Origin: Escherichia coli
Lineage (GTDB): Bacteria; Pseudomonadota; Gammaproteobacteria; Enterobacterales; Enterobacteriaceae
DNA length: 64,000 bases
Assembly: GCF_003334305.1 (NCBI RefSeq)
Contig: NZ_QOWS01000002.1
Strand: one strand, 5' to 3'
Shown: one piece after another, positions 35,928 through 42,096 of the stretch
Layout of the letters: each line of letters begins with the position of its first letter
How positions within the stretch are numbered: position 1 is the first letter of the stretch
Made by a program: the position numbers and the translations under genes
The notes under the pieces: model-generated
Databases searched by the model: none
Told to the model about the DNA's origin: nothing
Seen by the model: the letters and a program-made list of their open reading frames with translations, nothing else

Positions 35928-38603
35928 TTAAGCGGATTTTTTCGCTTTTTTCTCAGCTTTAGCCGGAGCGGCTTCTTTTTTCGCTGCAGTTTCACCTTCT
36001 ACATAATCACGACCGTAGTAGGTATCCAGCAGGATCTGTTTCAGCTCGGAGATCAGCGGGTAACGCGGGTTAGCGCCGGTGCACTGGTCATCGAACGCAT
36101 CTTCAGACAGTTTATCCACGTTCGCCAGGAAGTCTGCTTCCTGAACGCCAGCTTCACGGATAGATTTCGGAATACCCAGTTCAGCTTTCAGCGTTTCCAG
36201 CCATGCCAGCAGTTTCTCGATCTTAGCAGCAGTACGGTCGCCCGGTGCGCTCAGACCCAGGTGGTCGGCAATTTCAGCATAACGACGGCGAGCCTGCGGA
36301 CGGTCATACTGGCTGAATGCAGTCTGCTTGGTCGGGTTGTCGTTCGCATTGTAGCGAATAACGTTACAAATCAGCAGGGCGTTTGCCAGACCGTGCGGAA
36401 TATGGAACTGGGAACCCAGTTTGTGCGCCATTGAGTGACATACACCCAGGAAGGCGTTCGCAAACGCGATACCCGCGATAGTCGCTGCACTGTGAACACG
36501 TTCACGCGCTACCGGATTTTTAGACCCTTCGTGGTAGGACGCTGGCAGATATTCTTTCAGCAGTTTCAGTGCCTGCAGAGCCTGACCATCAGAGAACTCA
36601 GATGCCAGTACAGAAACATAAGCTTCCATGGCGTGAGTTACTGCGTCCAGACCACCGAAAGCACACAGGGACTTCGGCATGTCCATAACCAGGTTGGCGT
36701 CGACAATCGCCATATCCGGAGTCAGCGCATAGTCTGCCAGCGGATATTTCTGACCAGTAGCGTCGTCAGTTACAACCGCAAACGGAGTGACTTCAGAACC
36801 TGTACCAGAAGTGGTGGTGACAGCGATCATTTTCGCTTTCACGCCCATTTTCGGGAACTTGTAGATACGTTTACGGATATCCATAAAGCGCAGCGCCAGC
36901 TCTTCGAAGTGAGTTTCCGGATGTTCGTACATAACCCACATGATCTTCGCGGCGTCCATCGGGGAACCACCACCCAGCGCGATAATCACGTCTGGTTTGA
37001 AGGAGTTTGCCAGTTCTGCACCTTTACGAACGATGCTCAGGGTCGGGTCCGCTTCTACTTCGAAGAAGACTTCAGTTTCAACGCCTGCTGCTTTCAGTAC
37101 GGAAGTGATCTGATCAGCATAACCATTGTTGAACAGGAAGCGGTCAGTCACGATGAGCGCACGTTTGTGGCCATCAGTAATCACTTCATCCAGCGCGATT
37201 GGCAGGGAGCCACGGCGGAAGTAGATAGATTTCGGAAGTTTGTGCCACAACATGTTTTCAGCTCGCTTAGCAACGGTTTTCTTGTTGATCAGGTGTTTCG
37301 GACCAACGTTTTCAGAGATGGAGTTACCACCCCAAGAACCACAACCCAGAGTCAGGGAAGGTGCGAGTTTGAAGTTATACAGGTCACCGATACCACCCTG
37401 AGACGCTGGGGTGTTAATCAGGATACGAGCCGTTTTCATTTTCTGACCGAAGTAAGAAACGCGAGCCGGTTGGTTATCCTGGTCAGTGTACAGGCAAGAG
37501 GTATGACCGATACCGCCCATAGCAACCAGTTTCTCTGCTTTTTCTACCGCGTCTTCGAAATCTTTAGCGCGGTACATTGCCAGAGTCGGGGACAGTTTTT
37601 CATGTGCGAACGGTTCGCTTTCATCAACAACGGTCACTTCACCGATCAGAATCTTGGTGTTTTCTGGTACAGAGAAGCCTGCCAGTTCAGCAATTTTATA
37701 GGCTGGCTGACCAACGATAGCCGCGTTCAGCGCACCGTTTTTCAGGATAACATCCTGAACAGCTTTCAGCTCTTTACCCTGCAACAGATAGCCGCCGTGG
37801 GTTGCAAAACGTTCACGTACAGCGTCATAAACAGAGTCAACAACAACAACAGACTGTTCAGAAGCACAGATTACGCCGTTGTCGAAGGTTTTGGACATCA
37901 GTACAGATGCAACTGCACGTTTGATATCAGCAGTTTCATCGATAACAACTGGAGTGTTGCCCGCGCCTACACCGATAGCTGGTTTACCGGAGCTGTATGC
38001 GGCTTTAACCATGCCCGGACCACCAGTCGCGAGGATCAGGTTGATGTCTGGGTGGTGCATCAGTGCGTTAGACAGTTCAACAGAAGGTTGATCGATCCAG
38101 CCGATCAGATCTTTCGGAGCACCGGCAGCGATAGCAGCCTGCAGAACGATATCAGCCGCTTTGTTGGTGGCATCTTTTGCACGCGGGTGCGGGGAGAAGA
38201 TAATGGCGTTACGGGTCTTCAGACTGATCAGCGATTTGAAGATAGCAGTTGAAGTCGGGTTAGTGGTCGGAACGATACCGCAAATAATACCGATTGGTTC
38301 AGCGATAGTGATGGTACCAAAAGTGTCGTCTTCAGACAGAACACCACAGGTTTTTTCATCTTTATAGGCGTTGTAGATATATTCAGAAGCAAAGTGGTTT
38401 TTGATCACTTTATCTTCGACGATACCCATGCCGGATTCGGCAACGGCCATTTTCGCGAGTGGGATTCGAGCATCTGCAGCAGCCAGAGCGGCGGCGCGGA
38501 AGATTTTGTCTACTTGCTCTTGAGTGAAACTGGCATATTCACGCTGGGCTTTTTTTACACGCTCTACGAGTGCGTTAAGTTCAGCGACATTAGTAACAGC
38601 CAT
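35928..38603 (-). CDS. adhE: Bifunctional aldehyde/alcohol dehydrogenase
   Basis: Track ORF 891 aa [35 protein letters not shown]... Confidence 0.97.
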
Positions 38604-39079
38604 AATGCTCTCCTGATAATGTTAAACTTTTTTAGTAAATCATCTGCTCGAATACGAGAGTATAGTCAGTGCGGTGATGATTTGCTTAACCTATGAAAAT
38701 CAAAAGCTTACTCGCGCTCACACTCACTGTGATTTACTAAAAGAGTTTAAACATTAGAGTTATTATCTCTAATGCGTCACTTCCAGGTGGCGTAAGCAAG
38801 ATTACTCACTTCTGGGTACTGATTACGTGATCCAAATCAAATTTTTGCAAAGCTGACACCTTTCAGCATCGCTTTTCGCCATTATAGCTAACAGTTAATA
38901 AATTGTAGTATGATTTGGTGGCTACATTAGCATGTTTTGCACAACTAGATAACAATAACGAATGATAGCAATTTTAAGTAGTTAGGAGGTGAAAAATGCT
39001 GTCAAAAGGCGTATTGTCAGCGCGTCTTTTCAACCTTATTTATGGCTAACATTATCCGGCTTTTGCTTCGGAGCTAACC

Positions 39080-39727
39080 GTGATTCAGACCTTTTTTGAT
39101 TTTCCCGTTTACTTCAAATTTTTCATCGGGTTATTTGCGCTGGTCAACCCGGTAGGGATTATTCCCGTCTTTATCAGCATGACCAGTTATCAGACAGCGG
39201 CAGCGCGAAACAAAACTAACCTTACAGCCAACCTGTCTGTGGCCATTATCTTGTGGATCTCGCTTTTTCTCGGCGACACGATTCTGCAACTTTTTGGTAT
39301 ATCAATTGATTCGTTCCGTATCGCCGGGGGCATCCTGGTGGTGACGATAGCGATGTCGATGATCAGCGGCAAGCTTGGCGAGGATAAACAGAACAAGCAA
39401 GAAAAATCAGAAACCGCGGTACGTGAAAGCATTGGTGTGGTGCCATTGGCGTTGCCGTTGATGGCGGGGCCAGGGGCGATCAGTTCTACCATCGTCTGGG
39501 GTACGCGTTATCACAGCATTAGCTATCTGTTTGGTTTCTTTGTGGCTATTGCATTGTTCGCTTTATGTTGCTGGGGATTGTTCCGCATGGCACCGTGGCT
39601 GGTACGGGTTTTACGCCAGACCGGCATCAACGTGATTACGCGTATTATGGGGCTATTGCTGATGGCATTGGGGATTGAATTTATCGTTACTGGTATTAAG
39701 GGGATTTTCCCCGGCCTGCTTAATTAA
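39080..39727 (+). CDS. ychE: MarC-family inner-membrane protein YchE
   Basis: Track ORF 215 aa, polytopic. Confidence 0.88.
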   Translation: MIQTFFDFPVYFKFFIGLFALVNPVGIIPVFISMTSYQTAAARNKTNLTANLSVAIILWISLFLGDTILQLFGISIDSFRIAGGILVVTIAMSMISGKLGEDKQNKQEKSETAVRESIGVVPLALPLMAGPGAISSTIVWGTRYHSISYLFGFFVAIALFALCCWGLFRMAPWLVRVLRQTGINVITRIMGLLLMALGIEFIVTGIKGIFPGLLN

Positions 39728-40464
39728 TTCCTTTCAAATGAAACGGAGCTGCCATGCTCCGTTTACTTCGTCATTATTTTTACTTTGTTCCCGCGCAGTT
39801 ATCAAAAGCAAAAGGAATAGGTAAAAATATTCTTCTCAAATTACAGTTAGTTATAAGGATTTCCTTAACTGCTTCTCCTCACCATCATGTTATTTTCGCC
39901 ACATCATAATCCTGGGCTTGCTGAAGAATAATTGAAATGATATTAGTAATTCCACTGCCTTTGGTAGAGGAAAGTGCTAAATAATAATCAATTGTTAAAT
40001 TATTGTGCATTTCACTACTGGAACTGTAATCAGAAAAGATAGACATGCTTAGCCAATCTCTATTTGATTGAATTGAAAGATGTTTGTTAAGGCATGGATG
40101 CAAGCTATAGATTCTGATACGGTCAATAAAAGAGAATTGCTTAACAATTTTGCAAAATGTATTGGCGAGTAAGAACCGCATTTGGTACTTTCCGGGCAAC
40201 CGCCAGACGATTATTTATTGGTAATGAGAATAATTAACAATTAAAGAGCGTCGCGAAAGAATAATGTGTCTCGACAGGGGAGACACAGTACGAATCGACA
40301 TAAGGTGATCGTCTGAATCACCAGAATAAATAAAGTCGGTGATAGTAATACGTAACGATAAAGTAACCTGACAGCAGAAAGTCTCCGAGCCTGTGCAGGG
40401 TCCCAATCCGGGATTACACATGCTGGTTAATACCAGTAATTATAATGAGGGAGTCCAAAAAACA

Positions 40465-42096
40465 ATGACCAACATCACCAAGAGAAGTTTAGTAGCAGCT
40501 GGCGTTCTGGCTGCGCTAATGGCAGGGAATGTCGCGCTGGCAGCTGATGTACCCGCAGGCGTCACACTGGCGGAAAAACAAACACTGGTACGTAACAATG
40601 GTTCAGAAGTTCAGTCATTAGATCCGCACAAAATTGAAGGTGTTCCGGAGTCTAATATCAGCCGAGACCTGTTTGAAGGCTTACTGGTCAGCGATCTTGA
40701 CGGTCATCCAGCACCTGGCGTCGCTGAATCCTGGGATAATAAAGACGCGAAAGTCTGGACCTTCCATTTGCGTAAAGATGCGAAATGGTCTGATGGCACG
40801 CCAGTCACAGCACAAGACTTTGTGTATAGCTGGCAACGTTCTGTTGATCCGAACACTGCTTCTCCGTATGCCAGTTATCTGCAATATGGGCATATCGCCG
40901 GTATTGATGAAATTCTTGAAGGGAAAAAACCGATTACCGATCTCGGCGTGAAAGCTATTGATGATCACACATTAGAAGTCACCTTAAGTGAACCCGTTCC
41001 GTACTTCTATAAATTACTTGTTCACCCATCAACTTCACCGGTGCCAAAAGCCGCTATCGAGAAATTCGGCGAAAAATGGACCCAGCCTGGTAATATCGTC
41101 ACCAACGGTGCCTATACCTTAAAAGATTGGGTCGTAAACGAACGAATCGTTCTTGAACGCAGCCCGACCTACTGGAACAACGCGAAAACCGTTATTAACC
41201 AGGTAACCTATTTGCCTATTGCTTCTGAAGTTACCGATGTCAACCGCTACCGTAGTGGTGAAATCGACATGACTTATAACAACATGCCGATCGAATTGTT
41301 CCAGAAGCTGAAAAAAGAGATCCCGGACGAAGTTCACGTTGATCCATACCTGTGCACTTACTATTACGAAATTAACAACCAGAAACCGCCATTCAACGAT
41401 GTGCGTGTGCGTACCGCACTGAAACTAGGTATGGACCGCGATATCATTGTTAATAAAGTGAAAGCGCAGGGCGACATGCCCGCCTATGGTTACACTCCAC
41501 CGTATACTGATGGCGCAAAATTGACTCAGCCGGAATGGTTTGGTTGGAGCCAGGAAAAACGTAACGAAGAAGCGAAAAAACTGCTGGCTGAAGCGGGTTA
41601 TACCGCAGACAAACCGTTGACCATCAACCTGTTGTATAACACCTCCGATCTGCATAAAAAGCTGGCGATTGCTGCCTCTTCATTGTGGAAGAAAAACATT
41701 GGTGTAAACGTCAAACTGGTTAACCAGGAGTGGAAAACGTTCCTCGACACCCGTCACCAGGGTACTTTTGATGTGGCCCGTGCAGGCTGGTGTGCTGACT
41801 ACAACGAACCAACTTCCTTCCTGAACACCATGCTTTCGAACAGCTCGATGAATACCGCGCATTATAAGAGCCCGGCCTTTGACAGCATTATGGCGGAAAC
41901 GCTGAAAGTGACTGACGAGGCGCAGCGCACAGCTCTGTACACTAAAGCAGAACAACAGCTGGATAAGGATTCGGCCATTGTTCCTGTTTATTACTACGTG
42001 AATGCGCGTCTGGTGAAACCGTGGGTTGGTGGCTATACCGGCAAAGATCCGCTGGATAATACCTATACCCGGAATATGTACATTGTGAAGCACTAA
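40465..42096 (+). CDS. oppA: Periplasmic oligopeptide-binding protein OppA
   Basis: Track ORF trimmed to ATG at 40465 giving MTNITKRSLVAAGVLAALMAGNVALA..., 543 aa with signal peptide. Confidence 0.95.
   Translation: MTNITKRSLVAAGVLAALMAGNVALAADVPAGVTLAEKQTLVRNNGSEVQSLDPHKIEGVPESNISRDLFEGLLVSDLDGHPAPGVAESWDNKDAKVWTFHLRKDAKWSDGTPVTAQDFVYSWQRSVDPNTASPYASYLQYGHIAGIDEILEGKKPITDLGVKAIDDHTLEVTLSEPVPYFYKLLVHPSTSPVPKAAIEKFGEKWTQPGNIVTNGAYTLKDWVVNERIVLERSPTYWNNAKTVINQVTYLPIASEVTDVNRYRSGEIDMTYNNMPIELFQKLKKEIPDEVHVDPYLCTYYYEINNQKPPFNDVRVRTALKLGMDRDIIVNKVKAQGDMPAYGYTPPYTDGAKLTQPEWFGWSQEKRNEEAKKLLAEAGYTADKPLTINLLYNTSDLHKKLAIAASSLWKKNIGVNVKLVNQEWKTFLDTRHQGTFDVARAGWCADYNEPTSFLNTMLSNSSMNTAHYKSPAFDSIMAETLKVTDEAQRTALYTKAEQQLDKDSAIVPVYYYVNARLVKPWVGGYTGKDPLDNTYTRNMYIVKH

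Follow-up and report, generated by a model that had tools for sequence, protein, structure and literature searches.

The gap between ychE and oppA of Escherichia coli contains an open reading frame (ORF) of 104 codons on its minus strand. This locus raises the question of whether this ORF is a gene, whether its strand gives rise to an antisense RNA, or whether the gap is the control region of oppABCDF and carries the ORF as a by-product. A sequence-only reading of this DNA favored an extended oppA leader/promoter region with a chance ORF.

The ychE-oppA gap and the oppA control region

The window analysed is the whole stretch of E. coli DNA of 64,000 nucleotides, and all positions refer to it. 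The ychE-oppA intergenic gap extends from 39728 to 40464 (737 bp), as defined by the flanking ORFs and by the RefSeq annotation of identical DNA. The features of the gap and its neighbourhood are summarized in Table 1. The GC content of the gap is 37.2%, as compared with 50.05% for the whole 64-kb window. Only 0.09% of the 737-bp segments obtained by sliding along the 64 kb have a lower GC content than the gap, and all of them are overlapping neighbours of the gap. The gap is the most AT-rich stretch of this size in the window, in agreement with its earlier description as unusually long and AT-rich. The same 737 bp is found in 5,424 of 5,426 complete E. coli genomes with identities of 90-100%, and a contiguous copy of the gap is missing in 83 of these 5,424 genomes. 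The ychE-oppA locus was also fetched from 80 species. The same architecture of the gap, with lengths of 664-878 bp, is observed in 70+ species across Enterobacteriaceae.

Table 1. Positions of the features in the ychE-oppA gap and its neighbourhood
Feature	Position	Strand	Identity (75 sequences)	Remarks
adhE	35928-38603	minus
ychE	39080-39727			stop codon ends at 39727; flanking gene left of gap
Hairpin AAACGGAGC-TGCCAT-GCTCCGTTT	39741-39764	plus		directly 3' of ychE stop codon; read from sequence
104-codon ORF, TTG start	39885-40199	minus		34% GC; judged non-coding
Conserved block	39888-39897		0.89	P1 -66 to -57
oppA P1	39918-39954	plus		-35 TTGCTG 39918-39923; 17-nt spacer; -10 TATTAG 39941-39946; start A 39954
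Conserved block	39928-39947		0.88-0.97	P1 spacer and -10
Conserved block, consensus GAATGTGCTAAATAATAAcCAATTGTTAAATTTT.GT.CA	39968-40007	plus	0.75-0.89	P1 +15 to +54
CTAA target of IS5U (insH21) in MG1655 NC_000913.3	39977-39980
Variable P1-leader spacer (ORF middle)	40008-40127	plus		sequence essentially unconserved, length constrained
oppA P2 and upstream block	40128-40199	plus		-35 TTGGCG 40162-40167; extended -10 TGgTACTTT 40183-40191; start A 40199 (P1 +246)
Conserved blocks	40128-40167 and 40178-40197		0.82-0.98	P2 upstream block, -35 and -10
Leader hairpin TGTGTCTCGACAGGGGAGACACA (40265-40287), then RNase E site (40294)	40265-40294	plus		RNase E site is +341, formerly P3
Conserved block	40268-40305		0.62-0.78	hairpin and RNase E site
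MicF sRNA pairing site AATAAATAAAGTCGGTGATAG	40325-40345	plus		+372 to +392; published protection
Conserved block	40328-40347		0.87-0.88	MicF site
AU-rich stretch deleted in oppA-delta-399 construct	40352-40370	plus		EM5095 junction
Conserved block	40368-40377		0.84
Conserved block	40418-40447		0.67-0.95	just upstream of SD; 0.95 at 40438-40447
oppA SD GAGGGAG (40447-40453) and AUG (40465-40467)	40447-40467	plus		AUG is +512; sequence
oppA	ATG at 40465	plus		flanking gene right of gap

The hairpin located directly downstream of ychE retains its stem among other Escherichia species while its loop varies, and is likely the ychE terminator. It is not flagged by the terminator scan, because its T-run is interrupted. 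On the other side of ychE, a 17-aa small protein in RefSeq, YchT (b4771), is encoded at ~38996-39049, 30 nt upstream of ychE; it is below the length limit of the ORF list used. The start of oppA is placed at 40465 in K-12 and by PGAP, in agreement with published SD and toeprint data. It is placed 15 codons earlier, at an ATG at 40420 inside the leader, in the O157:H7 Sakai record, and the mechanical ORF list extends oppA to a GTG at 40393. The gap contains two further chance ORFs, one of 68 codons (40215-40421, minus strand) antisense to the P2 leader, and the other of 51 codons (39754-39909, plus strand) running from the ychE terminator region to just upstream of the P1 -35. Both are left without annotation in the genomes inspected.

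Two transcription start sites of oppA, P1 (+1) and P2 (+246), have been confirmed by Carrier, Lalaouna and Masse (RNA Biol 2023; PMC9988348), where they are given as resting on primer extension and dRNA-seq. In the same paper, the "P3" of Igarashi (+341) is re-assigned as an RNase E cleavage site, MicF pairing is mapped to +372 to +392 by protection data, GcvB is placed at the oppA RBS and Hfq just upstream of the SD, the oppA leader is described to contain a polyamine-responsive structure, and Lrp is described to act on transcription. The primers of Carrier et al. match the window either exactly or with one strain SNP, and P1, P2, +341, +372-392 and +399 are placed consistently by them. The primer for the P1 promoter fragment, EM5064, ends at 39954, the T7-oppA primer EM4528 (+341) begins at ATCGACATAAGG, which is position 40294, and the delta-399 junction in EM5095 is located at 40352. 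P1 +1 is assigned to 39954, because EM5064, EM4528 and EM5095 all independently give this position. Therefore, P2 is assigned to 40199, the MicF site to 40325-40345, and the oppA AUG at 40465 to +512.

The hexamers of P1 and P2 were read from the sequence; the layout of P2 is TTGGCG-18-TACTTT with an extended -10 TG. When the 5' end of MicF is searched against the whole leader with RNAduplex, the best duplex is formed at ~40327-40346 (-20.3 kcal/mol), as an independent check of the published site. The AU-rich stretch at 40352-40370 has been proposed as a translational enhancer, and the SD/AUG region of oppA is where GcvB and Hfq bind and polyamines have an effect (PMC9988348). The ychE-oppA spacer is listed as H-NS-bound by Shimada et al. 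(2014; PMC3946193), and a further constitutive promoter, TTAACA-17-AAGAAT, is predicted in it in the same study. This promoter is identical to the plus-strand site detected at 40234-40262 in our promoter scan. A search of Rfam at a permissive threshold over 38500-41000 gives two chance matches only (plant miRNA and scaRNA), and no family on the leader.

The IS5U element of MG1655 splits the ORF and separates P1 from oppA. The P1 leader is a recurrent IS target (39977-39980 and ~40117-40123), with IS5 in MG1655 and ISSen4 in NCTC122, and these leader insertions cut P1 off from oppA. An IS2 difference between K-12 sub-strains at ychE-oppA is listed in PMC2072959.

Conservation of the gap was analysed by aligning 75 sequences (the window and 74 other species) and calculating identity to the window. 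The alignment consists of sharply bounded conserved blocks parted by near-random sequence, which is mostly 0.22-0.46 identical. The family-wide blocks coincide with P1, P2, the RNase E hairpin, the MicF site and the RBS. Thus, the gap aligns across Enterobacteriaceae as non-coding DNA made of blocks of regulatory sequence, an outcome that the sequence-only reading had named as speaking against a gene, and its preferred explanation is borne out by the published P1, P2, RNase E and MicF sites, which all map into the gap. These results suggest that the gap is very probably the oppABCDF control region, in which the conserved parts act as DNA and as plus-strand RNA and the minus-strand ORF is a by-product rather than a gene. 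According to this scheme, in which all regulators (RNase E, MicF, GcvB, Hfq, polyamines, Lrp and H-NS) are taken from the literature, two sigma-70 promoters would fire rightwards, with P1 producing a 511-nt leader and P2 a 266-nt leader. The leader would be cut by RNase E at 40294 and would pair with MicF at 40325-40345 beside the AU-rich enhancer. GcvB, Hfq and polyamines would act at the oppA ribosome-binding site, and Lrp and H-NS would act on the AT-rich DNA of the gap. The double promoter and ~500-base leader region of oppA is already known and well studied, and the finding is ordinary; as a textbook case of dense post-transcriptional control (MicF, GcvB, Hfq, RNase E and polyamines), the oppA region gains nothing new from this analysis.

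Spurious or antisense promoters are common in AT-rich DNA bound by H-NS. Because the gap is DNA of this kind, a non-coding antisense RNA may be produced over the P1 leader and promoter and modulate oppA by transcriptional interference or by forming an RNA duplex, in which case the ORF would be irrelevant. Promoter-like sites are indeed detected on the minus strand at 40009-39981 and 39805-39776. However, the number of promoter-like sites, 4, shows no excess over that expected from shuffled sequences (3.0 +/- 1.7). An Hfq-dependent 'ychE-oppA' RNA has been reported by Raghavan et al. (2011), according to papers that cite this work. This RNA may be antisense, but, as it is described there to lack a terminator and to depend on Hfq, it fits a plus-strand leader fragment like Salmonella OppX. 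In addition, the conserved blocks are fully accounted for by the plus-strand promoters and leader sites. A functional antisense RNA is therefore improbable, although it is the alternative that survives best.

Coding tests on the minus-strand ORF

The ORF is present in the window as claimed by the sequence-only reading. It extends from P1 -69 to exactly P2 +1, and is therefore antisense to the P1 leader (to its first 246 nt) and covers both promoters. PGAP annotates a shorter version of this ORF, which starts at an ATG at 40181 (39885..40181) and encodes a "hypothetical protein" of 98 aa (WP_001211521 and relatives), in 21 of 30 evenly sampled complete E. coli genomes. The curated records of K-12 MG1655 and O157 Sakai have no gene at this position. 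A weak SD-like sequence, GGAAAG, is located 7-12 nt upstream of the ATG at 40181 on the minus strand. When the gap is shuffled with its dinucleotide composition preserved, a start-to-stop ORF of at least 104 codons is obtained in 143 of 5000 shuffles (2.9%); this rate is unusual for a single gap, and such ORFs are expected several times per genome. The annotation by PGAP, the open frame in most E. coli genomes, the rarity of an ORF of such length among the shuffles and the weak SD-like motif all favor a reading of the ORF as a de novo gene that is young and specific to E. coli; it would be expressed from an antisense transcript overlapping the P1 leader, with a start just upstream of 40199.

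The product of the ORF has no match in Pfam, NCBIfam, PHROG, PADLOC or PDB, and thus lacks recognisable motifs, as had been noticed. The low-complexity composition also attributed to it is only mild: Ser, Ile and Leu account for 15, 13 and 10 of the 104 residues, and the entropy is 4.01 bits. A single-sequence AlphaFold model of the product has a mean pLDDT of 43, which is weak evidence, and shows no confident fold. The homology search proposed by the sequence-only reading indicates that the product is lineage-restricted: in a collection of 5.8 billion proteins, homologues are found in E. coli and Shigella only, the single exception being a hit labelled Enterobacter hormaechei (P0013). Truncations and fusions are frequent among the matches, with lengths of 58-143 aa. 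No report on translation of the 98/104-aa product was found by the literature search.

The reading frame is not kept in related genomes, which argues against a gene. The five other Escherichia lineages, in which OppA has an identity of at least 99.3%, all have the frame of the ORF broken by in-frame stops or frameshifts. L004, the closest sister lineage, has a single in-frame stop in addition to the terminal one; the other four lineages have 2-4 stops, and in three of these four a 1-bp indel is also found within the "conserved" C-terminal part. The E. coli frame is open end to end in none of the 74 other species. When the frame is anchored at the N-terminus, the median number of stops in these 74 species is 6, and the lowest is 1. 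When it is anchored at the C-terminus, the frame is open in two species, in which the segment is 322-323 nt long, which puts the N-terminal block into another frame. A stop-free minus-strand run of at least 90 codons is detected in the homologous segment in 8 of the 74 other species, which is more than expected from naive chance, though the frames differ and the species are related. The frames differ across genera because the segment is 322-324 nt long rather than 315. The two ends of the ORF look conserved in other genera by tblastn, because these ends are the P1 and P2 promoter blocks. The tblastn "homology" in other genera (33-40% identity over ~100 aa) was rejected as coding evidence, as it derives from these promoter blocks.

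The substitutions relative to the window are distributed evenly among the three codon positions of the ORF, both in lineage L007 (20/27/22) and in lineage L008 (24/30/25). Likewise, conservation across the family is 0.62/0.60/0.62 by codon position for the ORF, as compared with 0.85/0.96/0.48 for the ychE control, and the GC content by codon position is 0.33/0.35/0.34 for the ORF, as compared with 0.47/0.40/0.58 for ychE and 0.54/0.39/0.51 for oppA. When E. coli is compared with the more distant Escherichia lineages, identity in the middle of the ORF (39991-40126) is 53-63%, corresponding to a divergence of 0.37-0.47. The 4-fold sites of ychE and oppA diverge by 0.29-0.49, and their first and second codon positions by 0.006-0.032. 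The middle of the ORF thus diverges at the neutral rate, matching the 4-fold sites of the flanking genes. Among 12 E. coli genomes, the ORF has 15 variable sites, which are distributed as 4/7/4 by codon position without third-position excess, and the density of variable sites is 4.8% in the ORF and 4.5% in the rest of the gap.

Of the 12 E. coli genomes sampled, 9 have an intact ORF. A nonsense allele at codon 42 is found in O157:H7 SS52, Sakai and FDAARGOS_946, and a second nonsense allele, independent of the first, is found at codon 49 in AVS0285. These alleles speak against a de novo gene, as they are fixed in successful O157:H7 lineages (Sakai and SS52) and present in AVS0285, and so do the disruption by IS5 in MG1655, the polymorphism without third-position excess, the stop already present in the closest sister lineage, and the lack of a confident fold. 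Moreover, no minus-strand promoter-like site is detected upstream of the ORF start at the threshold of the scan, and a terminator-like hairpin is present just upstream of this start (40287-40265, minus strand), which is the reverse complement of the conserved leader hairpin. For a de novo gene to exist at this locus, its antisense transcript would have to be weak, purifying selection on it would have to be not yet detectable, and O157:H7 and MG1655 would have to have lost it already. Such a gene is highly improbable, as is this variant of it. The possibility that the AT-rich segment is the decayed remnant (pseudogene) of a horizontally acquired gene upstream of oppA, which would fit its GC content of 34% (low as compared with the genome) and a site that draws the mobile elements IS5, ISSen4 and IS2, is rejected as next to impossible, because the gap is syntenic and of near-equal length (664-878 bp) in 70+ Enterobacteriaceae species, a shared architecture that makes it ancestral rather than an insertion, and because the protein search found no homologue of the product beyond E. 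coli, Shigella and the single Enterobacter hormaechei-labelled hit.

The ORF, judged from its sequence, behaves as non-coding DNA, failing every coding test run. It would consist of two promoter blocks that lack stops by chance and, between them, a spacer that drifts neutrally and is at present free of stops in most E. coli. We infer that neither a functional peptide nor a functional antisense RNA is made from the minus strand of the oppABCDF control region.

The P1-P2 spacer and its flanking blocks

Across genera, the variable spacer in the P1 leader is 0.22-0.46 identical to the window over most of its length, and 0.51-0.62 identical at 40058-40077. Its length is, nevertheless, constrained. 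The anchors at 40005 and 40130, between which the spacer is located, are 133-135 nt apart in 65 of the 75 sequences (sd 2.8), whereas the lengths of the other variable stretches of the gap have an sd of 13-14. From P1 +1 to P2 +1, most genera have a distance of 254-256 nt and Escherichia has one of 247 nt, and the spacing from 40130 to 40187 is invariant (57 nt in all 75 sequences). A semi-conserved AT-rich motif, tTGAttt.tAA...TTTT, is located in the middle of the spacer (40058-40092). In 69 non-Escherichia species, this motif keeps a constant distance of ~70-80 nt to the AAAAGAGAAT block.

For the P1-specific leader of E. coli (+1 to +247; 39954-40200), the predicted fold is one extended hairpin (-60.4 kcal/mol, z = -2.6). 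In this hairpin, which is also predicted for the nearest relatives of E. coli, GGAAAGUGCUAAAU (39969-39982) pairs with AUUUGGUACUUUCC (40181-40194), the RNA copy of the P2 -10 region. The long hairpin was considered as the cause of the constant P1-P2 length and was rejected as a family-wide feature: RNAalifold gives no structure on the family alignment, single-sequence folds are inconsistent, and the long-range pair probabilities (anchored mean of the 69 non-Escherichia species) are at most 0.09. As no long-range helix is shared outside Escherichia, the constrained length is not accounted for by RNA structure. The combination of a fixed spacer length with a free sequence suggests a length-dependent promoter architecture, of which no description was found in the literature searched. 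An architectural constraint on the spacer at the DNA level is a reasonable guess, if a conjectural one. This spacer of fixed length and free sequence between P1 and P2 across Enterobacteriaceae is the one mildly interesting by-product of the analysis.

The blocks at 39968-40007 and 40128-40167, which flank the spacer, are among the most conserved of the gap (0.75-0.98 identity), and no function was found for them in the literature searched. A 9-nt inverted repeat joins both flanking blocks, with AATTGTTAA at 39990-39998 and TTAACAATT at 40142-40150. Examination by eye gives only a partial Lrp-like match in the conserved blocks, and the local 5' hairpin at 39973-40009 is weak, with a mean pair probability of 0.21. 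The block at 39968-40007 is a candidate for an operator or for a 5' leader element, and the two blocks together could be putative operators for one regulator or a leader RNA element.

Comparison with known systems

The gap is the same locus as the oppA promoter and 5' UTR of E. coli K-12 (Igarashi et al. 1997; PMC9988348). The strain of the window differs from K-12 at 39946 in the P1 -10, where T is replaced by G (TATTAG instead of TATTAT), and also lacks the IS5 present in the MG1655 reference; otherwise nothing of substance differs from the K-12 oppA region. In Salmonella, OppX is derived from the oppA 5' UTR and acts as a sponge sRNA for MicF (Matera et al. 2022, as cited in PMC9988348). 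OppX and the E. coli oppA leader are homologous, and the MicF site is conserved at 0.87-0.88, including in the Salmonella loci (L013 and L014). Unlike the case of OppX, however, no stable leader fragment is detectable in E. coli, and MicF is an activator of oppA translation (PMC9988348).

For the "hypothetical protein" that has been carried into thousands of E. coli genomes in RefSeq, the best interpretation is an antisense shadow cast by two promoters. This clean negative is useful for annotation clean-up, and calls for caution in screens for orphan genes and de novo genes. Antisense overlapping genes have been claimed in EHEC (nog1, asa and laoB), reportedly on the basis of expression and phenotype data. 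The present ORF resembles them in being a sizeable ORF antisense to an annotated functional element of E. coli. In contrast to them, it is known here from its sequence alone, and in EHEC O157:H7 it has a premature stop at codon 42. The ORF also resembles the over-predicted "hypothetical protein" ORFs of AT-rich DNA, which are likewise lineage-restricted, domain-free, flat in codon statistics and variably truncated, and likewise annotated by PGAP and absent from the curated K-12 and Sakai records. It is unlike typical over-predicted ORFs in that both of its ends seem to be conserved in other genera by tblastn, a feature that could mislead a homology-based check.
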